Assembly: GCA_903822115.1 (NCBI GenBank) | Contig: CAIJNU010000060.1 | Span: 1-32,042, forward strand | DNA length: 32,042 bases | Source: an uncultured Candidatus Peregrinibacteria bacterium | Lineage (GTDB): Bacteria > Patescibacteriota > Gracilibacteria > Peribacterales > Peribacteraceae | Direction: 5' to 3' | Part shown: positions 322 through 29,543 of the stretch, in pieces | Position numbering within the stretch: the stretch's first letter is position 1 | Layout: the number at the start of each line of letters is the position of its first letter | Program-made: the position numbers and the translations under genes | The notes under the pieces: generated by a model | Seen by the model: only the letters and a program-made list of their open reading frames with translations | Databases searched by the model: none | Told to the model about the DNA's origin: nothing

Positions 322-326
322 AGTTC

Positions 327-3926: not shown

Positions 3927-3986
3927 TATTGCAAATCCTCCTGATCGCCCAGAGCGAAGGCGTTCTTTTTCTGATAGTTCCTGTGA

Positions 3987-4643: not shown

Positions 4644-4660
4644 AATCAGAATTTGAGTAT

Positions 4661-4691
4661 AAAAAGCCCCTCTCCTCGAGGGGCTTTTTTG
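4661..4691 (+). terminator. rho-independent terminator
   Basis: AAAAAGCCCCTC-TCCTC-GAGGGGCTTTTTTG: an 8-bp GC-rich stem, a 5-nt loop and a T6 tract, 18 nt after the TAA at 4641-4643. Confidence 0.8.
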
Positions 4692-4769
4692 CTCTCATTA
4701 CTCTCGAAATGAATGTTCTCAAGAAAGAAAACGGAGGTCGTGATCACCAAAATCCCCTATACTCCTCCC

Positions 4770-5492: not shown

Positions 5493-7081
5493 GAGAACCG
5501 ACTGTCCTTGGACTCCTCGGGATCCTCGAAATCCTCTATGCTGTGCCCATCTCCACGAGAATAATCCTCATCGGCCTCTCTCTCCTCGCGTCCCTGTCAC
5601 CTCTCTGCACCTTCGCGTCGTTTTGGCAGATAAAAGAGTGGCGCTGGGACCGCCTGAGAGAGCACGTGAAGCGCGAGGGGATCGTCGTCCTCTTCTCCCT
5701 CTCCCGACTCGCCTTGCTCGCCACAGCCGTTGTCTTTGTTGCGGCGCAAATCACCACTTCGCTCAATGCACTCGTCGCACTTCTGTCACTTCTGACGATT
5801 ATCGGGATTGTCCAGGTATCGATGCGCAGACAACCCTTTCCCGTATGGACTTCCAAAGCGATGGTCCTGACAGGCGTCGCCATTGTCGCCGACTTCCTCC
5901 TGGCCATCATCCTCGCACCTTCGGCCGCGAAACTCTCTCTCGGTCTTCTTCCGTTTCTGCAGTTTCTGATCCTTGCGACGGCCTGGTCACTGTTCTATCC
6001 ACTCGACCGATACTTGAAAGCGAAGACAATCCGGCAGGCAACGTCGCTGCGCGTAAAGTTCCCGCACCTGCGTGTCATCGGAGTGACGGGAAGCGTGGGA
6101 AAGACCACGACGAAGGAGCTCCTCGCACACATTCTCGGCGATCTCCACCCTCTCTCGACCCCGGCTCATGTGAATTCGGAGCTGGGAGTGGCGCGGTGGC
6201 TGCTCTCTATTCTTTCGAAAACGCAGCACGATTCTTCGCAACCGGTCATTGTCGAGATGGGAGCCTACCGAAGCGGAGAAATCGCGACGCTCAGCCGAAT
6301 GGCTCAACCTATCTACGGCGTCATCACCTTTATCGGTTCACAGCATCTGGCGCTATTCGGCTCGAGGGAGGCGCTCATCGCAGCCAAGGGAGAACTCCTG
6401 GAATCGCTGCCGGTGTCGGGAAAGGCCTTCATCAACGGGGACAGTGATGCGAGCCTGCAGACACGCCATCTCTGCGTGTGCCCCGTGGTCGTTGTGGGAA
6501 CCGGAGAACGAGCGGATGACATTGCGACGGAGATCGAAGAGATGAGGAATGGATTGAAGTTCAAATTCGGCCAGACGATGTTCACCGTCCCCCTCCACGG
6601 CACGCACAATGTCGCGAACGTGCTCCTCGCCATCGAAGTCGCAAAGGAGCTGGGACTGCGCGAGGAGCGCATTGCGGAGAAACTGAAGACATTCGCCCCC
6701 CTCCACCAGACATTCGAGGTTCGAGAGGAGAGGGGCATCACCATTCTCGACGACACGCACAACTCCAGCGCCGCGAGCTTCCAGGCTGCGATCACGTGGG
6801 CCGACGCACAACCCTTCGAGCGGAAGGTGCTTCTCTCAAGCGGCATCATCGAGCTCGGTGAAGAGAGTGCACGAACGCACCGGGAGCTGGGATCGCTTGC
6901 TTCAGACGTATTCGATGCCGCGTTCTTCCTCGATCGCAAGAGTGCAGAGCTCTTCCGTGCGGGATTTGAGAAGAGCGTAAGTATGCTCACCAAAGACGCA
7001 CCCACCCTTTCGACTTCGACACTTCTCGTCTGCGTCGGAAGAATACCGCCTGAGAGCATTCGCATTTTGTTACCGAAGTAA
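5489..7081 (+). CDS. MurF-like Mur-family ligase with N-terminal polytopic membrane domain
   Basis: Residues 1 to ~185 form about 6 hydrophobic helices. After them come the Mur-ligase P-loop VIGVTGSVGKTTTKELLAHIL, the central domain, and a C-terminal LDDTHNSSAASFQAAITWA (compare MurF DDxYNANPxS). The GTG start overlaps the upstream stop (GTGA at 5489-5492). Confidence 0.75.
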   Translation: MREPTVLGLLGILEILYAVPISTRIILIGLSLLASLSPLCTFASFWQIKEWRWDRLREHVKREGIVVLFSLSRLALLATAVVFVAAQITTSLNALVALLSLLTIIGIVQVSMRRQPFPVWTSKAMVLTGVAIVADFLLAIILAPSAAKLSLGLLPFLQFLILATAWSLFYPLDRYLKAKTIRQATSLRVKFPHLRVIGVTGSVGKTTTKELLAHILGDLHPLSTPAHVNSELGVARWLLSILSKTQHDSSQPVIVEMGAYRSGEIATLSRMAQPIYGVITFIGSQHLALFGSREALIAAKGELLESLPVSGKAFINGDSDASLQTRHLCVCPVVVVGTGERADDIATEIEEMRNGLKFKFGQTMFTVPLHGTHNVANVLLAIEVAKELGLREERIAEKLKTFAPLHQTFEVREERGITILDDTHNSSAASFQAAITWADAQPFERKVLLSSGIIELGEESARTHRELGSLASDVFDAAFFLDRKSAELFRAGFEKSVSMLTKDAPTLSTSTLLVCVGRIPPESIRILLPK

Positions 7082-7112
7082 AGTCGCTTACTTTTTCACC
7101 TACACTCTGTTC

Positions 7113-8348
7113 GTGTCACGCGTCATCCATCACTCATTCGGCCCTCTCGCAGATGCTGACCAGCAACGCTTGGCGTGGCATCTTATCCTAAACCCCCACA
7201 TGCTGAAGACGGAGCACGCACGCGAAGAATTGCGCTCATCGCTCGCCACAAGCGGGAAAGGCGACGCCTCTCTCTTCGCCTCCGGCAGAGAAGGCCTCCT
7301 CGCACTGCTTCGCGCATGCGAATTTCCCACGGGATCCGAAGTGATCGTCCAAGCGTACACATGTGTCGTGGTTCCCAACGCCATCCACGCCGCGAAACTC
7401 ACGACGATCTACGCGGACATTGAAAAAGAGACGCTCAATATCGACCCTTCATCTCTCGAATCCATCATCACTCCTCGCACGAAAGCTGTCATCTGCCAGC
7501 ACACCTTCGGCATTCCCGCAGATGTCCAGAAAATTCGAGAAATTTGCGACAAGAATGGGCTGATGTTGATCGAAGATTGCGCGCACGTTCTCCCCGATGC
7601 ACTTGGCCCCGAGGAAATCATGAGTCTCGGCGATGCCATGCTCTTGAGTTTCGGAAGGGACAAAGCCATCTCGGGCGTCAGCGGCGGAGCGATCATCTGC
7701 CGCAAAGAAACAGTCTCCCATCGACTGCAGAAACTGGAGAAATCCGCCATTCCCCTGCCCCCGAGCACTATTCGCCGCCTCCTCCTCTACCCCATCTTCT
7801 ATGGACTCGCGCGACCGCTGATGGGATTGGGCCTCGGGAAAGCGCTCCTCACACTCCTGCGACAATTGCGCTTGCTTGTACCCATTGTCACAGCACAGGA
7901 GAAAGAAGGTCGGCAGGATGCGACACTCCATCAGATGCCGGAGGCATGTGCGATATTGGCACTCCAGCAATGGAAGAAGCTGCAGAAGATCAACGATCAT
8001 CGACGATCCCTCACACGATACTATCTAGAGGCTTCGGCGCAGATAGGTTGGCCGGTGCTCCACGGTGTTCGCTCCGATCTCCCGTTGCAGAAGTACCCGA
8101 TGTTCGTGCGTGATGCAGAGGGGATCAGGCGCGCACTCAAGAAGAAGAACATTCACCTCCATGACGGCTGGACGGGTTGCGTCGTCTGTCCCGCGTCCGC
8201 AGATCAGGGAAAAACAGGATACTGTGAGGGAAACGACAGAAATGCCGAAGAGGTCGCCGAGGAGATCCTCTCTCTTCCCACACATCCGGGAATGACGGAA
8301 GAGGATACGAAGAGGCTTGTGAGTGCCCTGACGCCGTTTCTTCGGTAG
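7113..8348 (+). CDS. DegT/DnrJ/EryC1/StrS-family PLP-dependent aminotransferase
   Basis: FASGREGLLALLRA...GSEVIVQAYTCVVVPNAI...AVICQHTFGIPADV...LIEDCAHVL...SFGRDKAISGVSGGAI contains the PLP-Lys motif. GTG start, with TACACT (7101-7106) 6 nt upstream. Confidence 0.85.
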   Translation: MSRVIHHSFGPLADADQQRLAWHLILNPHMLKTEHAREELRSSLATSGKGDASLFASGREGLLALLRACEFPTGSEVIVQAYTCVVVPNAIHAAKLTTIYADIEKETLNIDPSSLESIITPRTKAVICQHTFGIPADVQKIREICDKNGLMLIEDCAHVLPDALGPEEIMSLGDAMLLSFGRDKAISGVSGGAIICRKETVSHRLQKLEKSAIPLPPSTIRRLLLYPIFYGLARPLMGLGLGKALLTLLRQLRLLVPIVTAQEKEGRQDATLHQMPEACAILALQQWKKLQKINDHRRSLTRYYLEASAQIGWPVLHGVRSDLPLQKYPMFVRDAEGIRRALKKKNIHLHDGWTGCVVCPASADQGKTGYCEGNDRNAEEVAEEILSLPTHPGMTEEDTKRLVSALTPFLR

Positions 8349-8357
8349 CATAGCAAC

Positions 8358-9419
8358 ATGGAAATTCGCCCCGCCACCGATCCCCTCTCTTGGGACAGTT
8401 TCCTCCTGTCGCAACAATTTCGTCCGTTCCTTCAGAGTTGGACGATGGGCGAGGTGTACCGGGACATCGGACAGGAACCGATCCGACTGGAGGCACAGCA
8501 AGACGGGAAGACCATCGGCATCTGCTTCGCGCACATCGTCCACGCGAGGCGCGGCAGACATCTATCCGTGCCCTACGGCCCCGTTGTCGCATCGCAGGAG
8601 GCGCTGACGGCGCTCCTCGAAGCACTGACGAAAGTGGCGCAAGATCACCAGTGTGCATTCGTTCGCATCAGTCCGTTCTGGCCGTCTTCCTCCCCCTTCA
8701 TCCACAACCTCCCGTCATCATCGCTATCTTCTCCGCTCCATCTCCTCGCAGAGCACCTCTGGTATCTTCCGCTTCGCTCACCTGATGTCTGGGACCCAAC
8801 GCCCGCTGCTGACCACGAAGAAGGTACGAGAATCACAGAGGAAGCTTTGATGGCAGGAATGCGCTCAACAGCCCGAAATCTCATTCGACGTGCGAAGAAG
8901 GAGGGCGTTACCGTGACGCGATCAATGGATCCAGTCACCGATCTCCCCTCTTTCCTCAATCTCCACGATGAGACGAGACGACGCCACCACTTCACACCGT
9001 ACTCCACGTCATTCTTCCGCGCCCAGGTCTCCCGATTCGCGCGCTCGGGCAACGTCGCCCTCTACCTCGCGCACTACCAAGGAGAGGTGATTTCCGCCTC
9101 CATCCACATGATATTCGGCGGCGAAACCAGCTACCACCACGGCGCGAGCACGCTCAAGTACCGAAACATTCCCTCGAGCTACCTGCTCCAGTGGACCGCC
9201 ATCTGCGATGCGCTCGAGAGAGGAGATCGCGTCTACAACTTCTGGGGTGTCTCTCCGGAAGGCGCGAAGAAGCATCCTTTCGCCGGCGTGCGCACCTTCA
9301 AGACCGCTTTCGGAGGGAATCTGCTGGAGATCGCACACTGCAGGGACATTCCCCTCTCTCCGCTCTACCATCTCACGCGCGCCGTCGAAACGTGGCGCAA
9401 GTGGCGACGGGGTTTTTGA
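8358..9419 (+). CDS. FemAB-family (aminoacyl-tRNA-dependent) peptidoglycan peptide-branch transferase
   Basis: FLQSWTMGEVY..., RSTARNLIRRAKKEGVTV, LHDETRRRHHF, LYLAHYQGEVISASIHMIFGGETSYHHGAS and SSYLLQWTAICDALERGDRVYNFWGV follow the FemX/FemA/FemB pattern. TAGCAT (8346-8351) lies 6 nt upstream of the ATG. Confidence 0.85.
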   Translation: MEIRPATDPLSWDSFLLSQQFRPFLQSWTMGEVYRDIGQEPIRLEAQQDGKTIGICFAHIVHARRGRHLSVPYGPVVASQEALTALLEALTKVAQDHQCAFVRISPFWPSSSPFIHNLPSSSLSSPLHLLAEHLWYLPLRSPDVWDPTPAADHEEGTRITEEALMAGMRSTARNLIRRAKKEGVTVTRSMDPVTDLPSFLNLHDETRRRHHFTPYSTSFFRAQVSRFARSGNVALYLAHYQGEVISASIHMIFGGETSYHHGASTLKYRNIPSSYLLQWTAICDALERGDRVYNFWGVSPEGAKKHPFAGVRTFKTAFGGNLLEIAHCRDIPLSPLYHLTRAVETWRKWRRGF

Positions 9420-9436
9420 GCGCGTATGCTGTGAGC

Positions 9437-9757
9437 ATGAAGCAAGAAGAAGCCCTGACCAACGAGGAGAGGCTCGACAGGATTCTCCTCCACCTGGAGC
9501 GTCTCGATCGCCGAGACAAGATACGAACGTGGGGCGGGCTCGTTCACGGTATCCTCTCGCTCATCCCCACCGTGCTCCTCCTCTTGGGGCTCTGGTACTT
9601 TTACAATAATAGTGCGGCAATCATGCAATCCATTACGCAGCAAGCTGCGCAACAGGCGGCCGCCGTCGCATCGGGCATCCAAAAGGGAGCGGCTGTCTCC
9701 CTCCCAATCACTCCAGATGTGATCAAGCAATTGAAGCAAGCACTACACCTAAAATAA
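9437..9757 (+). CDS. small single-pass membrane protein, hypothetical
   Basis: MKQEEALTNEERLDRILLHLERLDRRDKIRTWGG, then the TM helix LVHGILSLIPTVLLLLGLWYFY, then a Q/A-rich tail. The track ORF from 9191 overlaps femAB. ATG 9437 has TATGCT (9425-9430) 6 nt upstream. Confidence 0.55.
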   Translation: MKQEEALTNEERLDRILLHLERLDRRDKIRTWGGLVHGILSLIPTVLLLLGLWYFYNNSAAIMQSITQQAAQQAAAVASGIQKGAAVSLPITPDVIKQLKQALHLK

Positions 9758-9782
9758 AAGCACGCCTCTCGACGTGCTTTTT
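9757..9782. terminator. bidirectional rho-independent terminator between convergent genes
   Basis: AAAAGCACG-CCTCTCGA-CGTGCTTTTT: a 9-bp stem flanked by an A-run and a T-run. It lies between the stop at 9755-9757 (+) and the stop at 9802-9804 (-). Confidence 0.7.
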
Positions 9783-9801
9783 AAATGCCTAGAAATTTCG
9801 C

Positions 9802-11262
9802 TTACTTCACCAAGTGCAACACATCATCCGGCGTCATGGTTGGGGACACTGAGAAACTTGGCATGCTGAGGAATTGGCTGCGATTGACCTGCTTGTCCGG
9901 AATATTGCCGATACCGAAAAGGTAGCCGGCAGCAGCAGCCGTCTGCGCGACGCGGTCATTCACGCCGCCCTGCGGATAATCGATGGCAAAGACCGGCTTC
10001 GCCGTCATGTCCTCGAGGAGCTTGCGACTCTCCTGCACCTCCAGCGTCACCTGCGCATCTGTGAGCGCGCGCAGATCTTCGCCCGAGTGCCCCGCCGACT
10101 GGACATCGTATCCATTGGCGATGAGCGTGAGGAGCGTCTTCTGGGTAATGCCCGTAAGACCAACCTCTTTCGTCTGAATGAAGAACGTCGCCGGCACGCC
10201 AGCCGCCGAAAGCGCGTCAGATGCCGCCCGAATATTGCTCGCATTCAAGCCCTCGATCGCGACGACAACCGCCTTCGATGGAAGGCGCACATCCTTTGCT
10301 TCCTGCTGGATCACAATTTGTTGTACGTCTCGCATGAGAAGGAAGGTCAATCCCGCATTTTTCAGTTTCTGAAGTTGTGCGGGAAGGTTTTGCAATATGA
10401 CACTCTGACTCACGTCAAACTGGAGAATAGGAAGCGTAAATTTCTCCTGACGCACGATGAACGTCGGAGAGAACGACGCAATGTAGTCCATGGATACGTA
10501 AGCTTCCTTGCCATCAAATGAAATGCGCGCCCATCCCTTGTTGATCGAGAGAGGATGAAGGAATGTCAGATTGGGAATTTCCCCTATTTTCGCGCTCTTG
10601 GGATCCGCTTTCTGTCTAACATTCACATGAGCGTAGTGCACATAGTAGAGATTCGCGTACGGCTTCTTCTCATCAGCCAGACGATCACTCGTCGTGAGTC
10701 TTCCGAGGTACGTGATCGCGACGTATCCCGTCTGCCCGTCAGACATCTGTACTTTCGCCCATCCCGCATTCACGAATTCCACCACCGTCACCGCATCCCC
10801 GCGATTAAATCGGCCGATCTCCTTCCCCGAGACACTCGGCGACGACCGAATATTAAGAAACGAATTTGTAACCCTATAGACATTCCCCTGATCGACCGTC
10901 CCGCTCGCCCTCAACCCCTCATACTGCTTCACCATGGAGAGATCCAGAACCGGCGGTGCCTCCACTGCTGTTCCGCTCCCCGTCGTCGTATCCAAAGGAG
11001 CGAGAGAGGAAGCGACTGCGGTTCCGCTCGCCGTTCCAAGCCCCTGAGACGCCAAGCGTTGGAAACGAGCGATGTCCTGCTCGGTAAACGTGAGATTGTT
11101 CGCGTTCGAACCGGAAGACGTGGGAGGCTTCACAGGCGCGCTGCTACATCCCGCAAACAGAATGCCAAACGAGGCAATGAGGAGGAACGCCACGAGGGGT
11201 GCGACGAACGAGAATCGTTGGGCGCGCCTCGGGACTGCGCGGCGGGAACGGTAGCGAACCAT
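9802..11262 (-). CDS. lipoprotein with two SH3b domains and a C-terminal polysaccharide deacetylase (NodB/CE4-like) domain
   Basis: Signal peptide with lipobox (LLIASFGILFAGCSS). Two SH3b-like units (YRVTNSFLNIRSSPSVSGKEIGRFNRGDAVTVVE...GWAKVQMSDGQTGYVAITYL and YVHYAHVNVRQKADPKSAKIGEI...GWARISFDGKEAYVSMDYI). The C-terminal region ATFFIQTKEVG...ANGYDVQSAGHSGEDL is deacetylase-like. Confidence 0.7.
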   Translation of the reverse strand: MVRYRSRRAVPRRAQRFSFVAPLVAFLLIASFGILFAGCSSAPVKPPTSSGSNANNLTFTEQDIARFQRLASQGLGTASGTAVASSLAPLDTTTGSGTAVEAPPVLDLSMVKQYEGLRASGTVDQGNVYRVTNSFLNIRSSPSVSGKEIGRFNRGDAVTVVEFVNAGWAKVQMSDGQTGYVAITYLGRLTTSDRLADEKKPYANLYYVHYAHVNVRQKADPKSAKIGEIPNLTFLHPLSINKGWARISFDGKEAYVSMDYIASFSPTFIVRQEKFTLPILQFDVSQSVILQNLPAQLQKLKNAGLTFLLMRDVQQIVIQQEAKDVRLPSKAVVVAIEGLNASNIRAASDALSAAGVPATFFIQTKEVGLTGITQKTLLTLIANGYDVQSAGHSGEDLRALTDAQVTLEVQESRKLLEDMTAKPVFAIDYPQGGVNDRVAQTAAAAGYLFGIGNIPDKQVNRSQFLSMPSFSVSPTMTPDDVLHLVK

Positions 11263-13263: not shown

Positions 13264-13292
13264 TTGTCTCTGTGGCGCGAGAGAGTTAGAAT
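13264..13292 (+). promoter_or_regulatory. sigma70-like promoter for a leaderless lipoprotein gene
   Basis: TTGTCT (13264-13269), a 17-nt spacer, TAGAAT (13287-13292), then 7 nt to the ATG at 13300. Confidence 0.5.
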
Positions 13293-13299
13293 CCAATCA

Positions 13300-14100
13300 A
13301 TGGATAAGCAATTGACGTGGGCAGGAAGTCTCCTCGTGACCTGTATCTTCTTTTCTGCATGCGGATCTTCGCATCCAAGCCCCCAACCAAAATCATCCAC
13401 AGGAAATATGATCGTAAAAGGAGAACCTCGCCCCAGCGCGAACCTCGGATTGTTTGTGTCCACGTACATAGGCGGTGGGGACACGACTCCTGCTGCTTCC
13501 GCACTTAAGGGGGTCGAAGCTCAAGTGAAACTGCACACGGAATTCAATCCGCTCGATAGCACCGATACCTTCTCACTGCTCAATGAATTCGGCTCCATCC
13601 TGCAGATTGATATTTCGGATCTGCTCAATCGTTCCACCGATCGACCGAAGACGCTCACGCAGTACACCGATAGTCTGAAGAACATAACGGCTCGCGCAAA
13701 GCAGACGGCGCAAGATTTGAGCGATCACGGGGACACGCTCAACAAAGACCTGCGCGATGCGCAGTCCAACCTCTCGAGTATCCGAAACAAATTGGATACG
13801 GCCAAGAATAAGAATGATTTCGCGACGGCGGGTGCACTGCAGAAGGATCTCGCTGATGCGCAGACCAAGGTGGGAGAGATCAACGCCAAAGAACAGGAGA
13901 ATAGAGACACTCTCACGACGTACCAGAATCTCATCGCCATCGCAGACCAACGCATCAAGGCCATCGAGCAGAATCGTGAAGCGCTGATTGCGGGAGTGAA
14001 GGTGATGGATATCCCCGGCGTTGATAATCTCGGAGTAATTCAGGGCCGATCGAGCCGTGCCGGCGGCACCTCGCTCTTCCAACCGCCCCCGAGCTTGTGA
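13300..14100 (+). CDS. lipoprotein with coiled-coil region, hypothetical (possible accessory of VirB4 module)
   Basis: MDKQLTWAGSLLVTCIFFSACGSS is a signal peptide plus lipobox. A long heptad-like charged region follows (KDLRDAQSNLSSIRNKLDTAKNKNDF...LQKDLADAQTKVGEINAKEQENRD). The track ORF starts at TTG 13264. Confidence 0.6.
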   Translation: MDKQLTWAGSLLVTCIFFSACGSSHPSPQPKSSTGNMIVKGEPRPSANLGLFVSTYIGGGDTTPAASALKGVEAQVKLHTEFNPLDSTDTFSLLNEFGSILQIDISDLLNRSTDRPKTLTQYTDSLKNITARAKQTAQDLSDHGDTLNKDLRDAQSNLSSIRNKLDTAKNKNDFATAGALQKDLADAQTKVGEINAKEQENRDTLTTYQNLIAIADQRIKAIEQNREALIAGVKVMDIPGVDNLGVIQGRSSRAGGTSLFQPPPSL

Positions 14101-14155
14101 AACCATAATCCTTTGATTTCGCAGTCCTAAGCCATATTCGCGATAGGAGACAGGA

Positions 14156-14184
14156 TTGAGAAAAGGGGTGTTTTGTGCTATACT
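14156..14184 (+). promoter_or_regulatory. sigma70-like promoter upstream of the VirB4-like gene
   Basis: TTGAGA (14156-14161), a 17-nt spacer, TATACT (14179-14184). The GTG start at 14208 gives a leader of roughly 17 nt without a Shine-Dalgarno. Confidence 0.5.
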
Positions 14185-14207
14185 TATGAGAATTCATTGA
14201 ATCAGAA

Positions 14208-16370
14208 GTGGCAAACACACCTCCAATCCCAAAGGCCCCCCACACTCCTCCCCCGCTCCTCGTCGCCATCGACGATCTGCTGGGTCTCCATAACCAAGCC
14301 GAGACCGCACTGACGAAAGGGAACGAAGGAGAAACGCTCACGCCCGCCGAACGCGAATCCATCAAGCACTACGAGGAAGGATTGCAGAAAATCCTCGATA
14401 TCATCGCACCCTCCGCCATGGAGATTCGCAATACGGAGATCCTCCTCAATGATCAGTTCGTGCGGACGCTCTACGTGTACAACTGGCCGAACTACATCTT
14501 CCCCAACTGGCTCTCGCAACTCGTGAACACCGACGCGCAGATGGAGATCTCGCAGTTCATCTACCCCTCAAGCAACAAAGCCATCCTGAAAATGCTCCGC
14601 AAGAAAGTCGTGGAATTGCGATCATCGATCCGCATGCTCGAACAGCGCGGCATCGTCCGCGATCCGTCGCTCGAGGCGGCACTGCAGGACGCCGAAGAGC
14701 TTCGGGATCTGCTCGCACGAGGCCGCGAAAAGCTCTTCCAGCTCGGCATGTACGTCACGATCTACGCCGAGGACGAGGAGAAGCTCAAGAAGCTGCAGAC
14801 GGACATCGAATCGATGCTCGGAGGAAAGCTCGTACTCACGCGGCCGTCATACTTCCAGATGGAGCACGCGTTCACGTCGACACTCCCGCTGTGTCTCGAC
14901 GAACTGGAGATCAACCGCAACATGAACACGTCGCCGCTCTCGACGAGCTTCCCCTTCTCCAGCTCCGACCTCACGAGCGACCACGGAATTCTCTACGGCA
15001 TCAACCGCCACAACGAAAGTCTCGTCATCTTCGACCGCTTCGATCTACCCAATGCGAACGCAAACGTGTTCGCCATCTCCGGCGCAGGAAAATCGTTCGC
15101 GGTGAAGCTCGAGATTCTGCGCTCGCTCATGCTCGACACCGAAGTGCTCGTCGTCGATCCGGAGAACGAGTACGTCGACCTCTGCAAGACCGTCGGCGGA
15201 TCGTTCGTTCCCCTCTCGCTCCAGAGCTCCCTGCACCTCAACCCCTTCGATCTACCGCGCGCCGTTCGCGGAGAGGAAGCGGAGACGGGAGAAGTGCTGC
15301 GCGCGGCCACCATCAACCTCCACGGACTCTTCAAGCTCATGCTCGGCAGCCTGACGCCCGCGGAAGATGGCATCTTGGACAAGGCAATCATCGACACCTA
15401 CGCGCTCAAGGGCATCGCTCTCACGACGCCCAACCCCGGCAGCAACGAACCGCCCACGCTCCACGACCTCGTCGACGTACTCCTGACAACGGAGGGCGGC
15501 GAGAACATGGCAAAGGTGCTCCAGAAGTACACAGCCGGAAGCTACGCGGGCATCTTCGATCAGCAGACGAACGTGAAGATGGAGAACCAGCTCGTCGTCT
15601 TCCAGATTCGCGATCTCGAGGAGCAGCTGCGTCCCATCGCGATCTACATCGTGCTGAACTTCCTCTGGAATAAGGTGCGAAGCGAACTCAAGAAGCGCTA
15701 TCTCGTCATAGATGAAGCGTGGAACCTGATGCAACACGAGGATTCCGCGCGCTTCCTCTTCGGCATCGTGAAGCGGGCGCGCAAGTACTTCCTCGGCATC
15801 ACGACGATCACGCAGGACATCGAAGACTTCGTGAATTCGCCCTACGGAAAACCGATCATCACGAACTCCTCGCTCCAGATCCTCCTGCGCCAGTCCCCCA
15901 CCGCCGTCGACAACCTCCAGAAACTCTTCTACCTCACGGAGGGTGAGAAGTACGTCCTTCTCAACTCCGGCATCGGGCAGGGAATCTTCTTCGCCTCCAA
16001 CAAGCACGTCGCCATCGAGATCATCGCGAGCCCCTCGGAGGCGGCGATCATCACCACGAAGCCGGAGGAAATCCTCGCGAAGCGTGCGGAGCAGGCCATC
16101 GTGGAGCGAGAGAAAGTCATCCAGGCACGCAAGCAGGGCGTCGATGCCCAGAACGTCAATCTCCCGCTCGCTTCAGTGCAACCGTCAACTCCGACTGCGG
16201 CACCGACCCCCGTCCCCGAGGGCCATCCCGCAACTGAACCGGTCCCGCTCACGCCTTCCACACCCGTCCCAACACCGACACCCCCTGCGGAAAAAAAGAC
16301 AGAGCAGCCGCAAACATCTGCGACACCGCTGACCCAGGTGACGCCACCACCGGAAGCGATGCCTCAGTGA
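14208..16370 (+). CDS. virB4: VirB4/TraC/PrgJ-like type IV secretion ATPase with Pro/Thr-rich C-terminal tail
   Basis: Walker A FAISGAGKSFAVK, LHLNPFDL, Walker B RYLVIDEAWNLM and ITTITQDIEDF. The N-terminal region is typical of Gram-positive-type VirB4 (RTLYVYNWPNYIFPNWLSQL). The last ~68 aa (about 16164-16367) are P/T/A-rich low complexity. Confidence 0.85.
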   Translation: MANTPPIPKAPHTPPPLLVAIDDLLGLHNQAETALTKGNEGETLTPAERESIKHYEEGLQKILDIIAPSAMEIRNTEILLNDQFVRTLYVYNWPNYIFPNWLSQLVNTDAQMEISQFIYPSSNKAILKMLRKKVVELRSSIRMLEQRGIVRDPSLEAALQDAEELRDLLARGREKLFQLGMYVTIYAEDEEKLKKLQTDIESMLGGKLVLTRPSYFQMEHAFTSTLPLCLDELEINRNMNTSPLSTSFPFSSSDLTSDHGILYGINRHNESLVIFDRFDLPNANANVFAISGAGKSFAVKLEILRSLMLDTEVLVVDPENEYVDLCKTVGGSFVPLSLQSSLHLNPFDLPRAVRGEEAETGEVLRAATINLHGLFKLMLGSLTPAEDGILDKAIIDTYALKGIALTTPNPGSNEPPTLHDLVDVLLTTEGGENMAKVLQKYTAGSYAGIFDQQTNVKMENQLVVFQIRDLEEQLRPIAIYIVLNFLWNKVRSELKKRYLVIDEAWNLMQHEDSARFLFGIVKRARKYFLGITTITQDIEDFVNSPYGKPIITNSSLQILLRQSPTAVDNLQKLFYLTEGEKYVLLNSGIGQGIFFASNKHVAIEIIASPSEAAIITTKPEEILAKRAEQAIVEREKVIQARKQGVDAQNVNLPLASVQPSTPTAAPTPVPEGHPATEPVPLTPSTPVPTPTPPAEKKTEQPQTSATPLTQVTPPPEAMPQ

Positions 16371-17425
16371 GAGGTCGGAAGCTGCGAGGGTGCATCATCA
16401 TCGACGACTTTCCAGCGCATTTCGGGTTTGAGTTTTCCCGGCAACGCGAATCCCGCAGCTTTGCGATGTCCTCCGCCGCTGAATTTGCCTGCCATGGCGG
16501 AGACGTCAACGTCATCGCGCAGTGTCCTCAGCGACCCTTTCACCTTGCCTTCGCGCTCGGAGAGGATGAGAGAAAAGCGCATACCGGGAACGGCATTCAC
16601 GTAGTCGATGGCGCCGGTCAGCGCGGAGTACTCGGCACCGGTAGCGCGGAAATCCCCCTCCGTAACGGCCGAAATCGCTCCTCCTTCCTCCGTCACCGTC
16701 ACCTTCTCCATGACTCTGCCCCACAGCCGAAGCGTCGAGAGCTCCGCCGTGCGGAATATGGCGGTCACGATGCTCTGGCGACGCGCTCCCGCTCGCAGGA
16801 GCTCGGCTACCGTGCGATACACGCGCGCCGTGGTATTGCTGTGGAGGAGGCCGCCAGTGTCCGTGTAGACCCCCGTGAGGAGGCAGGTGGCGACGTCCGC
16901 GGAGATCGTCCACTGCAGAAGCTCCGCCATGCGCACCACCACTTCACAACTGGAGCAGAGATCCGGTGCAACGAGATTGATGGTTCCGTAGTGAGGATTG
17001 CCGGGGTGATGATCGATATTGATTGTTCGAACGGAGCCGTCGAAGAGTTGAGGGTGCGAGCGATCGAGCTCCGTGAGCTTGGGCTCACCGCTGTCAAAGA
17101 AAATGATGATGTCATCCTTCTCCATCGCATTGTTGCCCGCCCCGGGAGGAGGCGGCACTTTCGTGACGCGCAGAGCCGCAGGCAGGAAGTGGAACTGGTC
17201 GGGAATGGCATCCACACAATGAAAAGTGACCTTCACAGACGGGAGGTAGGTCTCGAGGAGCAAACCACACCCCAGCATCGCTCCGATGGCATCCCCGTCG
17301 GGGTTGCGATGGCAGACACAGCGCACAGTGCGCGCATGCGAAAGGAGATCGAGAGCTGCGGCCGCATCTGCGTGAACGATCGGCATGGGCGTAATGGAAT
17401 ATTCTACCGCAACGAAATCAAACAC
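16364..17425 (-). CDS. nrnA: DHH/DHHA1 phosphoesterase (NrnA-like oligoribonuclease/pAp phosphatase)
   Basis: HRNPDGDAIGAMLG, IIFFDSG and NIDHHPGN (DHH motif), plus DHHA1 GGGHRKAAGF. It sits directly downstream of rbfA, an arrangement known from other bacteria. GTG start at 17425, with an alternative ATG at 17386. There is a 7-nt convergent overlap with virB4. Confidence 0.85.
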   Translation of the reverse strand: MFDFVAVEYSITPMPIVHADAAAALDLLSHARTVRCVCHRNPDGDAIGAMLGCGLLLETYLPSVKVTFHCVDAIPDQFHFLPAALRVTKVPPPPGAGNNAMEKDDIIIFFDSGEPKLTELDRSHPQLFDGSVRTINIDHHPGNPHYGTINLVAPDLCSSCEVVVRMAELLQWTISADVATCLLTGVYTDTGGLLHSNTTARVYRTVAELLRAGARRQSIVTAIFRTAELSTLRLWGRVMEKVTVTEEGGAISAVTEGDFRATGAEYSALTGAIDYVNAVPGMRFSLILSEREGKVKGSLRTLRDDVDVSAMAGKFSGGGHRKAAGFALPGKLKPEMRWKVVDDDAPSQLPTSH

Positions 17426-17870: not shown

Positions 17871-18752
17871 ATGACGTCCTCTCCGATCACCATTCTCTTC
17901 CTCGGAACATCGCCCTTCGCCGTTCCCGCGCTGGATGCCCTCGCCGGTGACTCTCGCTTCTCCGTGCTCGGTGTCGTCACGCAGCCCGACAAGCCGGTTG
18001 GGCGCAAGCAAGCCCTGACGCCGCCACCGGTGAAGGTACGAGCGGAGAGCCTCGGACTCAGAGTCACGCAACCGGAGAACCTCCGAAATGAATTCCCGCT
18101 TCTCTCCCTCCCCCGCCCCGACTTCCTCGTCACCGTGAGCTACGGCCAGATCCTCTCGCGGGAGGTTCTGGACTTCGCGAACGTTGCGCCGATCAACGTC
18201 CACGCCTCACTGCTGCCGCGGTGGCGCGGAGCCGCTCCGATCCAGAATGCCATCCTCGCTGGCGACAGTGAAACCGGCGTGACCATCCAGAGAATGGTGG
18301 AGGAACTCGACGCGGGGCCGATCTACGCCCATCAGAGCACGGAGATAGGAAAGCGAGAAACGACGACGTCCCTGCACGATCGACTGAAGGAAATCGGCGC
18401 CTCTCTCCTTGTGCGCACCCTCGTCGATCTCCCAGATCTGCGCCCGCAGGAAGGACCCATCGTCCTCTGCAAGAAACTCTCCAAACGCGACGGCGACGTT
18501 GACGTCAGTCTTCTCACGGCGGAGGAAATCGATCGTCGCGTCCGCGCACTGAACCCATGGCCGGGAGTCACGATCAACACGGAGGGCTCCCCCCTCAAAC
18601 TACTCGAGACTTCCCTCACTGCGGATACCGAAACCCATCCTCTGACGTGCAACGGAGAAATGCTCCTGCACCTGAGACGTGTTCTACCTGCCGGCGGTCG
18701 CCCGATGAGCGGCGCGGCATGGGCAAGAGGGAGGTTTCCCTCTCACGCTTAA
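17871..18752 (+). CDS. fmt: methionyl-tRNA formyltransferase
   Basis: ILFLGTSPFAVPALDAL...VVTQPDKPVGRKQ, NVHASLLPRWRGAAPIQNAILAGDSETGVTIQ and a C-terminal Formyl_trans_C-like region. TACACT (17858-17863) lies 7 nt upstream of the ATG. Confidence 0.95.
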   Translation: MTSSPITILFLGTSPFAVPALDALAGDSRFSVLGVVTQPDKPVGRKQALTPPPVKVRAESLGLRVTQPENLRNEFPLLSLPRPDFLVTVSYGQILSREVLDFANVAPINVHASLLPRWRGAAPIQNAILAGDSETGVTIQRMVEELDAGPIYAHQSTEIGKRETTTSLHDRLKEIGASLLVRTLVDLPDLRPQEGPIVLCKKLSKRDGDVDVSLLTAEEIDRRVRALNPWPGVTINTEGSPLKLLETSLTADTETHPLTCNGEMLLHLRRVLPAGGRPMSGAAWARGRFPSHA

Positions 18753-19033
18753 AGCTTCGTCTTCATCTCCTGAAACGCCTCGATGAATTTATCGAGGTCC
18801 TCGACGTCGAACATGATCGTCGTCTTCTGGCCGCCCCTCGATTTTTCCGAAACCTTGAAGAACTTGCCGTTCCCCGACTCCTTCAAATCGATGTAGAACG
18901 TGCGCTGGCGAGCGTGGATCGTGACGGAATGAAGGTCCTGTGCGAACCTTCCGCCTCCCTGATTCGCAGGCTTGGGTAAGGTGCCGCCGAGCGCATCGCC
19001 GTCTTGGGACTGGGCTCCCGTGAGCTCCGACAT
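18749..19033 (-). CDS. PUR-alpha-like nucleic-acid-binding protein (bacterial DUF3276-type)
   Basis: RFAQDLHSVTIHARQRTFYIDLKESGNGKFFKVSEKSRGGQKTTIMFDVEDLDKFIEAFQEM looks like a PUR repeat. The track ORF runs to 19153. I prefer the ATG at 19033 because TATGTT (19041-19046, minus) lies 7 nt upstream. Its stop overlaps the fmt stop (TTAA at 18749-18752). Confidence 0.6.
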   Translation of the reverse strand: MSELTGAQSQDGDALGGTLPKPANQGGGRFAQDLHSVTIHARQRTFYIDLKESGNGKFFKVSEKSRGGQKTTIMFDVEDLDKFIEAFQEMKTKL

Positions 19034-19153
19034 TGGGTCAAACATAAGAAGAGGGAAAATGATGAATCGCTGCTCCCTTCTCCACTCCCTGCGCGAACGC
19101 CAAGGCCGATTGGGAAGCGACCGCATCCTAGCAAAGCGAGTCGCGGGAGACAA

Positions 19154-20785: not shown

Positions 20786-21175
20786 TCAAGCCCCTCCTCC
20801 CGCCGCAGCCGTGAGCAGTGTCACGGCATAGACGATGACGGCATCCGCGACCATCGCAGCAATGAGGCCGATGACGACGTTCGTCGCGATCTTCTTGGCT
20901 TCGTTGAACCCCTCCTCGTTTCCGCCGCCCGACATCATCTTCACGCCGGCGTAGATCAACATCGCCACTCCCACTCCCGCGATGAGACCGAGGATCGTCG
21001 TGTTGATTTTGCCAAAGAGCGTATCGGGCAGATTCGCGCCCTCGGAGCTCATCGGAAAAACATCTTTGATCTGGGACCACATGTCCGAGATGCCCGGCCC
21101 GCTCCCGATCTGATCCAGCGTCACAGCGGAAGCCTTGGGAATGAACAAGCCGAGAATGGTGAGAAAAAAATTCAT
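20786..21175 (-). CDS. VirB2/TrbC-like T4SS pilin-type small membrane protein
   Basis: Signal peptide MNFFLTILGLFIPKASA, then two hydrophobic helices joined by a short polar loop (LIAGVGVAMLIYAGVKMMSGGGNEEGFNEAKKIATNVVIGLIAAMV). The M-x-SGG loop motif is shared with the neighbouring paralogues. Only 4 nt separate it from the upstream gene. Confidence 0.55.
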   Translation of the reverse strand: MNFFLTILGLFIPKASAVTLDQIGSGPGISDMWSQIKDVFPMSSEGANLPDTLFGKINTTILGLIAGVGVAMLIYAGVKMMSGGGNEEGFNEAKKIATNVVIGLIAAMVADAVIVYAVTLLTAAAGGGA

Positions 21176-21179: not shown

Positions 21180-21773
21180 TTACCAGGAAATCGTACGGTT
21201 CACGAACGCTTCGACGATTGCGCGCGCGGCATTCACAATGATAGCGCCGATGAACGCCCAGAGAATCGTCGTACCGCCTTTGTGGAATGCATCTTGCTTC
21301 CCTTGTGAAATCGCCATACGGAATCCCGCGATGATGACGACGACTGCCACCGCCACGTTGAAGAGAGCAAGCGCAATCCGCACGAACGCCGGAAGGAAAG
21401 ATGAGAAGACGAAGTCCCCGCCACCACCGCCCTGTCCAAAGTTCTCCGTGACGACGAACGAAACGAGCGAACTCGCGCTCAGTGCAAGAGCGAGTCCTCC
21501 GAGTCCGAACGTAATGCTCTTGCGGCCGTTGCCCGCTTTCGCATCATCGCCGTTACTGAACACCATCAGGAACCCTCCCCAGATGATTGCGAGGATCGCT
21601 CCCGCCGCCGCCGCTTCGAGGAGGAGACTGGAAATGGCGGGAACCACACTGGTCGCAAGCACGTTGGCCGGAGGCGAGTCGCAACCGGGAATGCCCTTGC
21701 AACGCACGATCGGCGGTTCCGCGGCAAATGCCTGGAAAGAGGAAGCGACGATGGAGAAGAGACGCACGATCAT
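21180..21773 (-). CDS. tandem (fused double) VirB2/TrbC-like pilin-type membrane protein
   Basis: Signal peptide MIVRLFSIVASSFQAFAA and a Cys pair CKGIPGC. Two helix-loop-helix units (AILAIIWGGFLMVFSNGDDAKAGNGRKSITFGLGGLALAL and VAVVVIIAGFRMAISQGKQDAFHKGGTTILWAFIGAIIV) are joined by a GQGGGGG linker. The start at 21773 overlaps the upstream stop (ATGA). The track ORF extends to 21848. Confidence 0.5.
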   Translation of the reverse strand: MIVRLFSIVASSFQAFAAEPPIVRCKGIPGCDSPPANVLATSVVPAISSLLLEAAAAGAILAIIWGGFLMVFSNGDDAKAGNGRKSITFGLGGLALALSASSLVSFVVTENFGQGGGGGDFVFSSFLPAFVRIALALFNVAVAVVVIIAGFRMAISQGKQDAFHKGGTTILWAFIGAIIVNAARAIVEAFVNRTISW

Positions 21774-22153
21774 CCGACTTTGAAGAAAGAAGCATTGATC
21801 GTATGCAATATCACTCCGACGAGGAGCAGAAGGAGAAGCCCCAGACATGCCGCTTGCACCTGCTTGATGGATGCGCTGCGCTTACTCTGATCGCCCCCCG
21901 ACATGATCACACCGGTCATGCCCCACAGCCCCCACACGACGGCGATGCCCGCCGCGACTCCCTCCGCCCACGGCAGAAGTTCATTGATATACGAGAGGAA
22001 GACGTCGAACGGTTTGCCCGTCGTAGGAATGGAGGTGAGCCCGCCGATGGGCTGGAGCAACTGGATATCGGCACTCGCGATGAGCGGCCACAGGAAGACG
22101 AGGAGGCCGCTTGCGAGCGTCAGAAGCCGGGCGTTTCTACGCTTCAGAGTCAT
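21770..22153 (-). CDS. VirB2/TrbC-like T4SS pilin-type small membrane protein
   Basis: MTLKRRNARLLTLASGLLVFLWPLIASA signal peptide, then AAGIAVVWGLWGMTGVIMSGGDQSKRSASIKQVQAACLGLLLLLLVGVIL. The track ORF extends to 22246. ATG 22153 has TGGTATACT (an extended -10) 6 nt upstream. Confidence 0.55.
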   Translation of the reverse strand: MTLKRRNARLLTLASGLLVFLWPLIASADIQLLQPIGGLTSIPTTGKPFDVFLSYINELLPWAEGVAAGIAVVWGLWGMTGVIMSGGDQSKRSASIKQVQAACLGLLLLLLVGVILHTINASFFKVG

Positions 22154-22159
22154 CACACT

Positions 22160-22273: not shown

Positions 22274-22351
22274 GCGGATGTAGCTCAGTTGGCTTAGAGC
22301 GTCGCCTTGCCAAGGCGAAGGTCGCGGGTTCGAGCCCCGTCATCCGCTCCA
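22274..22351 (+). tRNA. tRNA-Gly(GCC): tRNA-Gly, anticodon GCC, CCA encoded
   Basis: Manual cloverleaf: acceptor GCGGATG/CATCCGC, D-arm GCTC/GAGC, anticodon arm TCGCC-TTGCCAA-GGCGA, T-arm GCGGG-TTCGAGC-CCCGT, discriminator T, then CCA. Confidence 0.9.
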
Positions 22352-22352
22352 T

Positions 22353-22388
22353 CCGGCTTCGCTTCGATTGAGATCGAAGCTTCGCCGG
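22353..22388 (+). other. stem-loop immediately 3' of tRNA-Gly(GCC)
   Basis: CCGGC-TTC-GCTTCGAT-TGAG-ATCGAAGC-TTC-GCCGG: 5 + 8 bp with a 3x3 internal loop and no T-tract. CCGGCTTCG (22353-22361) is also complementary to CGAAGCCGG (22469-22477), just before the GIY-YIG gene. Confidence 0.4.
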
Positions 22389-22490
22389 GATTGTTATGAG
22401 AATGAGCCATTTCAAGACAGGATGCAGGATGCCACGGCGTAGTCCCGGCGTAACGGAGTGCAGCCGGACGAAGCCGGGCAGAATGATTCA

Positions 22491-22730
22491 ATGTACTTTG
22501 TCTATCTTCTTCAGTCCGCGCGTATTCCCGAGCGAAAGTACGTCGGTATCAGCGATGACCCACTTCGCCGACTTGCAGAGCATAATAAAGGTCACAGCAC
22601 TCATACGAATAGATTCAAGCCATGGAACCTCATGACCTATGTGGCATTCGATAACCTATCAAAAGCACAATCTTTTGAACGCTATCTTAAATCCCATTCC
22701 GGTCGAGCATTTGCAAAAAGACATTTATGA
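22491..22730 (+). CDS. small GIY-YIG nuclease-domain protein
   Basis: MYFVYLLQSARIPERKYVGISDDPLRRLAEHNKG...SHSGRAFAKRHL is a GIY-YIG core (Y-x-Y...YVG...R...H N) of 79 aa. The track ORF starts at 22458. ATG 22491 has CAGAAT (22479-22484) 6 nt upstream. Confidence 0.75.
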   Translation: MYFVYLLQSARIPERKYVGISDDPLRRLAEHNKGHSTHTNRFKPWNLMTYVAFDNLSKAQSFERYLKSHSGRAFAKRHL

Positions 22731-22795
22731 CCTACGGTTTCTTCTCGCGCTCTCTCTTCTTCTTTGCGAAAGAAAAGACTGTACACTCCCACCGT

Positions 22796-23629
22796 ATGCT
22801 CGATACGAAATTAGCACTGAGTACGGCGATGGACGCTGCGAAGAAAGCCGGTGATTTCCTCGTTTCCCGATACAACGATATCCATGTTCGCGGAGAAGCG
22901 ATTGCCATTCGAGAAAAAGGATCGGCACTGGATCTCGTCACGGACATAGACCGCGACTCCCAACGCATGATCGTCGAGACCATCCACCAAGTCTTCCCCG
23001 ATCATCGCTTCCTCGGAGAGGAGGGAGAAACAGATGCGATCGGCTCCCCCGCTTCGCCCTACACCTGGATCATCGATCCGCTGGATGGCACGACCTGTTT
23101 CCTCCACGGACGAACGAACTTCGGCACCATCATCGCCCTGCAGGAGAACGACGTGATACAGCTCGGTGTGATCTCTATCCCCCTCAAAAATCAGCTCTTC
23201 CACGGAACACGCGGGGGTGGCGCATTCTGCAACGGTCAACCGCTGAAATTGCGCAATACTCGAGACATGGCCGATGCCATCCTGTGCTCGAATACTATCC
23301 GACGCGCGGAGAAATGCGTCCGTGGTGAGCTGCATGTCTCGATTCCATTCTGTGCGTCGTTGGAAAACTACGGAAGCGCAGTTGAGGAATTCGGAGAAAT
23401 ACTTCTCGGACACAATGATGGCGGCTTCTTCCGCGGCCCCCGCCTGTGGGACATTGCGGCGGGATGCTTCCTGATCGAGGAGCTCGGAGGAAAAGCAAAG
23501 TACACGTTTGAGGAACCGGGGAATCCGAGAGGAGGACTTCTCGTCGCCGCTTCCACAGCCCCTATCTTCGACGAGCTCTCCCACTTCGTCTTCACGACAC
23601 TCGCGAAATCTCCGACGCCTGAGAAATGA
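22796..23629 (+). CDS. inositol monophosphatase family protein
   Basis: FLGEEG, WIIDPLDGTTCFLHG and WDIAAG motifs. The track ORF starts at 22727, overlapping the GIY-YIG stop in ATGA. I prefer the ATG at 22796 (MLDTKLALSTAMDAAKKAG) with TACACT (22782-22787) 8 nt upstream. Confidence 0.85.
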   Translation: MLDTKLALSTAMDAAKKAGDFLVSRYNDIHVRGEAIAIREKGSALDLVTDIDRDSQRMIVETIHQVFPDHRFLGEEGETDAIGSPASPYTWIIDPLDGTTCFLHGRTNFGTIIALQENDVIQLGVISIPLKNQLFHGTRGGGAFCNGQPLKLRNTRDMADAILCSNTIRRAEKCVRGELHVSIPFCASLENYGSAVEEFGEILLGHNDGGFFRGPRLWDIAAGCFLIEELGGKAKYTFEEPGNPRGGLLVAASTAPIFDELSHFVFTTLAKSPTPEK

Positions 23630-23640
23630 TTCTATAGACC

Positions 23641-23661
23641 GATGCGAAACTGATTCGCATC
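23641..23661 (+). other. hairpin after the IMPase gene (terminator-like, no T-tract)
   Basis: GATGCGAA-ACTGA-TTCGCATC: an 8-bp perfect stem, 12 nt after the stop at 23627-23629. Confidence 0.35.
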
Positions 23662-23708
23662 CTCTATACTTCAAATCGTCAAAACGATCTTTTGAAAAAT
23701 ATCACGAA

Positions 23709-23802
23709 GCGTTGGGTGGCTCCGACGGGACCCAACGCTGAGTGATCACCATTGAGGGAAAGGATGGTCCTTGGAAGGAAAACCGTAGGTTTGCCTTCCA
23801 AG
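23709..23802 (+). other. structured leader upstream of tRNA-Gly(CCC): two strong hairpins
   Basis: Hairpin 1 is GCGTTGGGT (23709-23717) pairing with ACCCAACGC (23730-23738), 9 bp. Hairpin 2 is CTTGGAAGG-A-AAACC-GTA-GGTTT-G-CCTTCCAAG (23770-23802), 9 + 5 bp. It ends 8 nt before the tRNA. Confidence 0.4.
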
Positions 23803-23810
23803 AAATCCTT

Positions 23811-23884
23811 GCGGGATTAGTACAGTGGTAGTACGCGAGCTTCCCAAGCTTGAGACGCGAGTTCGATTCTCGTATCCCGCTCCA
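23811..23884 (+). tRNA. tRNA-Gly(CCC): tRNA-Gly, anticodon CCC, CCA encoded
   Basis: Manual cloverleaf: acceptor GCGGGAT/ATCCCGC, D-arm GTAC/GTAC, anticodon arm CGAGC-TTCCCAA-GCTTG, T-arm GCGAG-TTCGATT-CTCGT, discriminator T, then CCA. Confidence 0.9.
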
Positions 23885-29541: not shown

Positions 29542-29543
29542 TC

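Follow-up and report, generated by a model that had tools for sequence, protein, structure and literature searches.

The window that we have analysed, a stretch of 32,042 nt (positions 1 to 32,042 of contig CAIJNU010000060.1 in assembly GCA_903822115.1), comes from an uncultured Candidatus Peregrinibacteria bacterium of the Peribacteraceae. It contains an open reading frame (ORF) at 14208-16370 on the plus strand, with a GTG start, that encodes a 720 amino acid (aa) ATPase of the VirB4/TrsE type, the motor of a type IV secretion system (T4SS). Directly upstream on the same strand is the gene for a 266 aa lipoprotein (13300-14100), and an array of three VirB2-like pilin genes lies 4.4 kb downstream. 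The virB4 ORF is intact, and the chosen start is that of the gene calls of its orthologues (median offset 0). An exact-sequence look-up of the window VirB4 gave no match; the gene call on record probably starts elsewhere.

All four of the motifs by which an earlier note on this DNA had recognized the ATPase are read in the translation. The Walker A motif ISGAGKSF occupies residues 290-297 (15075-15098, plus strand) and the Walker B motif LVIDEAW residues 499-505 (15702-15722, plus strand), with LNPFD at residues 344-348 and TTITQD at residues 532-537. The catalytic motifs are intact, and G292, G294, K295, S296, D502, E503, A504, W505 and Q536 are invariant across the aligned VirB4 proteins from the candidate phyla radiation (CPR; also named Patescibacteria). 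Four Pfam families match the protein above their cut-offs: P-loop_TraG (96.4 bits, cut-off 25.8), AAA_10 (37.6 bits, cut-off 27.5), TraC_F_IV (31.4 bits, cut-off 28.1) and CagE_TrbE_VirB (21.5 bits, cut-off 21). The NCBIfam equivalog model NF045971 ('VirB4-like conjugal transfer ATPase, CD1110 family') gives 354.8 bits against a cut-off of 325. Classification by hidden Markov model (HMM), which had been suggested as a check, therefore places the ATPase in the VirB4 family.

The protein begins with a short N-terminal lead, followed by the core of the VirB4 N-terminal domain (approximately residues 47-250) and a RecA-like ATPase domain (approximately residues 254-616). The match to the C-terminal domain of VirB4 in PDB 4AG5 extends over residues 254-616 with E = 4.6e-41; in a profile comparison 4AG5 scores 250 bits, and TrwK of R388 (7O41) is found with E = 1e-6. 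The match to NF045971 runs from VirB4 residue 60 onward and covers positions 185-734 of the 752 in that profile. What the window VirB4 lacks of this CD1110 model, its first ~184 positions, corresponds to the TrsD-type subdomain. In 40 of the 41 loci from other CPR classes virB4 is directly preceded by a TrsD-like gene of ~228 aa, while in three VirB4 cluster representatives (P0151, P0154 and P0155; 47-50% identity) a structured N-terminal region of ~200 aa is fused to the ATPase. The window ATPase would be the TrsE half of a split VirB4, with the N-terminal subdomain present as a separate TrsD-like protein.

The three pilin genes are all on the minus strand. The first (20786-21175, 129 aa) matches PF18895 with 37.5 bits, above the cut-off of 26.6. 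The second (21180-21773) is a tandem double pilin of ~197 aa when read from an internal methionine, with two stretches matched by PF18895 (35.9 bits); its size is conserved, the orthologues having 195-205 aa. The third (21770-22156, 128 aa) is matched only weakly, its 19.4 bits for PF18895 falling below the cut-off, and the NCBIfam Mbov_0395 pilin-like model finds it with E = 0.0014; its orthologues at the same position carry PF18895. The position of the pilins next to metG is conserved in relatives.

The best homologues of the window VirB4 (67-88% identity) are found in metagenome-assembled genomes named Candidatus Peribacteria, Peribacteraceae or Peregrinibacteria, which are CPR/Patescibacteria. 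The host is a small-genome CPR bacterium, in keeping with the episymbiont setting that had been proposed for the locus. The gene is part of a block of 17 genes whose order the window shares with 18 clade loci (L001-L017 and L087), judged wherever the fetched DNA was long enough to hold the block genes. The order is abhydrolase, Mur ligase, DegT aminotransferase, FemAB, a 104 aa membrane protein, SH3/polysaccharide deacetylase, argS, lipoprotein, virB4, nrnA, rbfA, fmt, a PurA-like gene, metG and the three T4SS pilins. Pfam matches confirm the flanking genes argS, nrnA (a DHH/DHHA1 protein), rbfA and fmt named earlier, as well as metG.

Across 16 distinct loci the mean identity to the window proteins is highest for VirB4 at 73.6%, followed by 63.6% for nrnA, 61.3% for metG and 59.0% for argS; it is 37-40% for the pilins and lowest, at 35.3%, for the lipoprotein. 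Because the block is syntenic and VirB4 has the highest mean identity, VirB4 is taken to be vertically inherited and to be more constrained than the adjoining aminoacyl-tRNA synthetases. To judge from these comparisons the gene is chromosomal and under purifying selection, and the envelope-exposed proteins (pilins and lipoprotein) appear to evolve fast.

Two members of the block deserve separate mention. The cell-wall genes directly upstream of argS (5489-11262), syntenic in the clade, comprise the Mur ligase, the DegT aminotransferase, the FemAB-family transferase, the 104 aa protein with a single membrane pass and the protein with SH3 and polysaccharide-deacetylase domains. The small PurA-like protein, of a family that binds single-stranded DNA or RNA, is encoded at 18749-19153 on the minus strand between fmt and metG throughout the clade, with 52-82% identity.

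The ATPase had been described as an orphan and as part of a minimal set of VirB4 plus pilins. Both descriptions are overstated. With DNA of up to 10 kb fetched on each side of virB4, no TrsD-like gene is found around virB4 in the clade relatives, nor is there one in the window, in which neither HMMs of the TrsD subdomain nor phmmer, given PrgI, TrsD and a 161 aa membrane protein (see below) as queries, found a match. A metagenome scan with the TrsD alignment gave several TrsD genes without an adjacent virB4 among the matches listed, which did not themselves include the Peribacteria contigs already known, and in the three loci inspected (L098, L129 and L134) a PrgI-like gene lies just upstream of such a TrsD. 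One GC-rich TrsD led by exact-sequence look-up to a contig of 1,174,142 bp (ena:ERZ27257312:k141_2092598) that also carries a clade VirB4 (L001), 79% identical to that of the window. On this sister contig virB4 is located at ~896.3-898.3 kb, and PrgI and the TrsD-like gene, flanked by clpC and an S1-domain gene, at ~931.6-933.1 kb. The sister PrgI, which is VirB3-like, matches PF12666 with 36 bits (cut-off 27), and a fourth pilin-like gene lies ~5 kb before it.

In the sister genome PrgI and TrsD are ~34 kb from virB4, and at that distance they would fall outside a window of 32 kb. The pilins are just 4.4 kb away in the window itself, and the window ATPase is without the TrsD-type subdomain that the sister contig encodes. 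VirB4 thus only looks like an orphan, because this lineage scatters its T4SS genes among housekeeping genes. We take the Peribacteria of this window to belong, in the GTDB taxonomy, to the class Gracilibacteria of a published survey. According to that survey TrsD and VirB3 in Gracilibacteria are unlinked from virB4, and VirB6 is undetectable (PMC12102498); the distance in the sister genome agrees with this dispersal.

We note that the TrsD-like gene of the sister genome is directly followed by the gene of a 161 aa protein (L169, 10736-11221; the same order in three separate assemblies) that contains several hydrophobic stretches and is matched by no Pfam family. It is a candidate for an additional membrane component of the T4SS.

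The locus does not fit a conjugative system carried by a plasmid or an integrative and conjugative element (ICE). A scan of ~37 ORFs of the window against Pfam and NCBIfam found no relaxase, no coupling protein of the VirD4/FtsK type and no member of the VirB6, VirB8, VirB9, VirB10 or VirB11 families, as the earlier note had said of the window, and the recorded Pfam annotations within 10 kb of virB4 in relatives include neither relaxase nor coupling protein. The context is not that of a mobile element, for virB4 has the same housekeeping neighbours throughout the clade and no other protein of the block is as well conserved as VirB4. The window VirB4 is 49-88% identical to VirB4 proteins of several CPR classes, and the nearest plasmid VirB4 proteins, from Firmicutes and Actinobacteria, are no more than 35% identical. 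The proposal of a chromosomal, non-conjugative T4SS motor is supported by the conserved housekeeping synteny, by the lack of a relaxase or coupling protein nearby and by this low identity to plasmid proteins.

In conjugative systems such as R388 and the Agrobacterium VirB system, hexamers of VirB4 lie at the cytoplasmic face of the channel, docked by VirB3. VirB4 is needed there to draw VirB2 pilin out of the membrane and to build the pilus. The ORF at 14208-16370 is probably the corresponding motor ATPase of a chromosomal, non-conjugative T4SS of the Patescibacteria clade in Candidatus Peribacteria. This T4SS would come in small modules with housekeeping genes between them, one comprising the lipoprotein and virB4 and another the three pilins 4.4 kb downstream; by analogy with the sister genome a further module would lie tens of kb on, with the PrgI and TrsD-like pair followed by a small membrane protein. 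A membrane-associated hexamer of VirB4 would dock through VirB3/PrgI, and hydrolysis of ATP would supply the energy for pulling pilin subunits out of the membrane and for assembling a pilus or a translocation channel. The pilus or channel would contact the host cell of the episymbiont, with no conjugation. By this analogy the most likely function of VirB4 is ATP-driven assembly of a pilus or channel for contact with the host. Assembly of a pilus and the nature of the substrate are aspects that we infer, as is any part played by the lipoprotein or by the C-terminal tail of VirB4; the family of the ATPase, its motifs, inheritance and conservation, the pilins, and the partners in a close relative are observed.

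Systems of this kind had been called functionally uncharacterised, a statement that no longer wholly holds. Transposon sequencing of the Saccharibacterium Southlakia epibionticum has shown that epibiotic growth cannot do without the homologous T4SS cluster and its array of pilins (PMC10633639). The distribution in Patescibacteria, including the dispersed arrangement in Gracilibacteria, has been surveyed in 3,035 genomes (PMC12102498, 2025); the Patescibacteria VirB4 clade is nested within the MPF-FATA group, and relaxases are mostly absent. A review regards the T4SS as a possible conduit between symbiont and host, and speculates that the pilus may serve uptake from the host (PMC12857230).

Several points weigh against our interpretation. 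Essentiality of the T4SS was shown solely in a Saccharibacterium (PMC10633639), not in Peribacteria. The placement of the window VirB4 in the CPR clade rests on ranks of identity together with the published tree (PMC12102498). PrgI and TrsD are seen in the sister genome, whose VirB4 is 79% identical, and not in the 32 kb of the window, and a VirB6-like channel protein was identified neither in the window nor in the loci of the relative. Lastly, the AlphaFold2 model of VirB4, made with 36 close orthologues, is poor (pLDDT 49.7), so that the domain layout is without structural confirmation; this model was used neither for a fold search nor as an argument for disorder in the tail.

The lipoprotein is the sole undescribed item at the VirB4 locus, the general phenomenon having been published (PMC10633639, PMC12102498). 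Its true start is the ATG at 13300, from which a hydrophobic signal sequence leads to the lipobox FSAC, with its cysteine at position 21. Cys21 is invariant in alignments of 17 and of 23 homologues, the lipobox following the pattern [LF]-[ST]-[AG]-C, and the same alignments show two conserved motifs, DLLNRSTDR and AIEQNREALIAG-KV-D-PG. The AlphaFold2 model has a mean pLDDT of 73, with block means of at least 90 over about residues 91-230. The lipid anchor is followed by a linker of ~45 aa that is modelled with low confidence and is probably disordered, and the predicted fold is a helical bundle dominated by a long hairpin of helices 115-170 and 174-224. The lipobox and the predicted hairpin agree with the description of a coiled-coil lipoprotein given earlier. 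From the helices of ~55 residues we estimate that a projecting bundle would be ~8 nm long. No gene for Lgt or Lsp is present in the 32 kb window; at least four copies of the Lgt gene have been reported in Peribacteria genomes (PMC4736985).

The family is confined to the clade. In the window and in L001-L017 its HMM matches nothing but the ORF that immediately precedes virB4, and there were no matches in 69 loci of other lineages; L087 has the same adjacency of lipoprotein and virB4. A profile search of 5.8 billion proteins returned 90 clusters only, all with at least 193 bits, so that the edge of the family is sharp, and searches for the motifs outside the clade by regular expression and by HMM found nothing. 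Against Pfam, NCBIfam and the folds of the PDB there was no significant match, only coiled-coil at the level of noise.

Assignments of the lipoprotein to ClyA/AhlC, PspA, SMC or VirB5 were considered and rejected, as the Foldseek matches in the PDB are at coiled-coil level only. The best are to AhlC (E = 6.4e-3, TM-score 0.36) and also to PspA, with a top query TM-score of 0.41 and none at or below E = 1e-3. A likeness to translocators of type III secretion systems or to toxins was likewise rejected, given 16.5 bits for SseC of Pfam (cut-off 30.2) and 15.6 bits for XaxA of NCBIfam (cut-off 125). There are in all three very weak signals toward helical membrane-active proteins like ClyA, AhlC, XaxA or SseC.

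Does the lipoprotein belong to the T4SS? One possibility is a genuine extracellular component, specific to the lineage, that is expressed together with VirB4 and owes its fast evolution to exposure at the surface, acting as a wall-spanning stalk, an anchor, a factor at the base of the pilus or a protein of host contact. The gene is directly upstream of virB4 on the same strand, with a gap of 17-160 nt where the gene caller picked it; its mean identity of 35% resembles that of the pilins and is unlike that of the cytoplasmic neighbours; its lipid-anchor cysteine and two motifs are conserved; and it holds the slot that TrsD occupies upstream of virB4 in other CPR classes. However, the adjacency is weak evidence of a shared function because the whole block of 17 genes is syntenic. 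Moreover no homologue of the lipoprotein that would allow an independent test of co-occurrence was found outside the clade, and none of the known T4SS components resembles it significantly. The peptidoglycan genes upstream (Mur ligase, FemAB and SH3-deacetylase) mean that it could equally be a cell-wall protein, a reading that is possible because these conserved genes sit upstream of argS.

A promoter-like site also separates the two genes. The 107 nt gap contains a match to a sigma-70-like promoter (14156-14184, plus strand; TTGAGA, a spacer of 17 nt and a TG-extended TATACT) that scores 10/12 in a consensus scan and is only a pattern match. The plus strand of the gap showed no terminator-like site. 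A further promoter-like pattern match, at 13264-13292, stops 8 nt short of the ATG at 13300; a transcript from it would be leaderless or nearly so.

On balance we regard a co-expressed, surface-exposed T4SS component as a possible but rather unlikely explanation of this gene, and likewise a genuine role in the T4SS. The pairing of VirB4 and lipoprotein claimed by the earlier note thus stands as adjacency, which the suggested survey of relatives finds in the window, in L001-L017 and in L087; the functional link does not stand in the same way, as it depends on that adjacency within a syntenic block alone. It is unlikely, in our view, that this lipoprotein is a hitherto undescribed extracellular part of the Peribacteria T4SS, tied to the membrane's outer leaflet and in rapid co-evolution with the pilins during an arms race with the host. 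Such a protein might replace the missing functions of VirB5, of VirB8 or of the periplasmic part of VirB6, or it might act on the envelope of the host.

For the ATPase itself, the alternative with most to commend it is a machine that works inward, taking up DNA or nutrients like the archaeal Ced system or ComB of H. pylori, with VirB4 powering import through a pilus-like conduit. Import requires neither relaxase nor coupling protein, the CPR are auxotrophic and uptake from the host through a pilus has been speculated upon (PMC12857230), and NCBIfam gives a weak match to CedB, an ATPase of DNA import. At 42.9 bits that match is far below its cut-off of 700, however, and is a generic match of the P-loop, and Peribacteria are reported to keep nucleotide synthesis (PMC4736985). 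No result here addresses the direction of transport. We consider an uptake machine quite improbable, and prefer the assembly of a pilus or channel for contact with the host.

It is very improbable that VirB4 is the decaying remnant of an integrated conjugative element of the Firmicutes CD1110 type, surviving by chance or exapted as a stand-alone ATPase unrelated to secretion. In favour of a remnant, NCBIfam places VirB4 just above the cut-off of that conjugal-transfer family, the N-terminal ~184 profile positions are missing, the other T4SS membrane components are absent from the window and there is a serine recombinase at the 5' end. Against it, VirB4 surpasses in conservation every other protein of a block with clade-wide synteny, and its catalytic motifs do not vary; conserved pilin genes lie close by, with PrgI and TrsD elsewhere on the chromosome of a relative; no plasmid VirB4 exceeds 35% identity; and the recombinase is 12 kb off in a separate segment of low GC content that the examined relatives do not share. 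Synteny and conservation, as read from the sequences, argue strongly against such a remnant.

That 5' segment (1-4700), whose first ~4 kb have a GC content of 0.46 compared with about 0.56, probably represents a mobile element or island that has integrated here. It encodes the large serine recombinase (377-2176, minus strand), a cupin, a B3_4-domain protein and a 246 aa ORF of no recognized family, together with a short, apparently truncated ORF (4023-4643) that has Big_3_5/MBG_2 domains. The relatives examined carry other genes at this position.

VirB4 ends in a tail of low complexity rich in proline, threonine and alanine (residues 641-720, 16128-16367, plus strand; P 26%, T 16%, A 10%), which includes the 68 aa core at 16164-16367 that was remarked upon earlier. 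The composition confirms that the tail is present. It is not a defining feature, however, as its length varies from 0 to 193 aa (median ~75) among 120 orthologues, with no conservation of sequence; the orthologue tails are enriched in P, T, A, S and E. A search for tandem DNA repeats in the tail found none. The tail is probably a variable, disordered appendage on a cytoplasmic ATPase rather than a conserved domain, and a regulatory or tethering role would be speculation. The coding sequence overlaps that of the convergent nrnA (16364-17425, minus strand) by 7 nt at the stops. The overlap is real, since the nrnA ORF spans these coordinates, in agreement with what had been reported, and the same arrangement is found in the closest relative.

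The nearest related VirB4 cluster representatives (P0146-P0152) have instead N-terminal extensions of low complexity of 110-500 aa, the composition of which probably tracks the GC content of the genome. The extensions are N/Q-rich in two, probably from low-GC genomes, and rich in P/A/E or K/E in the remainder. In the sister genome the PrgI-like protein (L169, 9240-9998) has a P/A/V-rich C-terminal tail of its own. Appendages of low complexity, probably disordered, thus recur on the cytoplasmic T4SS parts examined here and in related lineages.

Beyond the pilin array, at 22274-23884, genes for tRNA-Gly(GCC) and tRNA-Gly(CCC) bracket a small gene of the GIY-YIG nuclease family (22458-22730) and one for an inositol monophosphatase. 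Toward the 3' end of the window (28162-31984) a 459 aa polytopic membrane protein is encoded beside a sulfotransferase gene and an arylsulfotransferase-like gene. This protein (28162-29541) was considered as a VirB6 and set aside; it has no family match and may be a glycosyltransferase of the GT-C type, to judge from the neighbouring sulfotransferases and from a weak PMT_2 match on a non-orthologous membrane protein in a relative. If so, the region may form a cluster for the modification of surface glycans. The protein may still be a divergent VirB6.

The T4SS of the Patescibacteria is among the few machines that have been linked genetically to the episymbiotic lifestyle of a very large and mostly uncultivated radiation, and the locus adds detail for the Peribacteria, a lineage without cultured members. 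The current picture is unchanged; the annotation is refined and one candidate accessory protein is nominated. We note that searches based on a window or an operon under-call such a T4SS as an orphan, because its modules are scattered among housekeeping genes.

The ATPase shares with the VirB4 proteins of Gram-positive MPF-FATA systems (CD1110, TrsE of pGO1, PrgJ of pCF10 and the Thermoanaerobacter pseudethanolicus protein of 4AG5) the ATPase domain and the core of the N-terminal domain. The CD1110 model is matched above its cut-off, and the split into TrsD and TrsE is that of pGO1. Unlike these proteins, the window VirB4 is not on a plasmid or ICE, is no more than 35% identical to them and has no relaxase or coupling protein among the ORFs scanned; and while Gram-positive conjugation systems generally lack VirB2-like pilins, the window has them. 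There is some resemblance to the conjugation genes of the Mycoplasma ICE. The model for its VirB4 (Mbov_0397, NF045975) gives a partial match of 259.7 bits against a cut-off of 590, and all three pilins match the Mbov_0395 pilin-like model weakly, far below its cut-off of 40. The hosts of that ICE and the Peribacteria are both wall-reduced or monoderm with small genomes, but the window is without the ICE context.

The closest likeness is to the T4SS of the Patescibacteria clade, exemplified by SEML1_0006-0019 of Southlakia epibionticum (PMC10633639, PMC12102498), in which a chromosomal VirB4 is related to those of monoderm MPF-FATA systems. Common to both are the absence of a relaxase or coupling protein nearby and an array of divergent VirB2-like pilins, and separate TrsD-like and PrgI/VirB3-like proteins, as seen in the sister genome, would be a further likeness. 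As reported for the Gracilibacteria, TrsD and VirB3 are away from virB4 in that genome, and VirB6 is undetectable in the loci examined. Compared with the single cluster of the Saccharibacteria, the Peribacteria genes are spread over at least 35 kb among genes of translation and the cell wall. Compared with other CPR classes, a clade-specific lipoprotein replaces TrsD in position and VirB4 has a variable C-terminal tail of low complexity. The locus fits the published Patescibacteria-clade T4SS, and what is specific to this clade is the dispersal into modules, already published for Gracilibacteria, together with the lipoprotein neighbour and the variable tail, which are minor differences.

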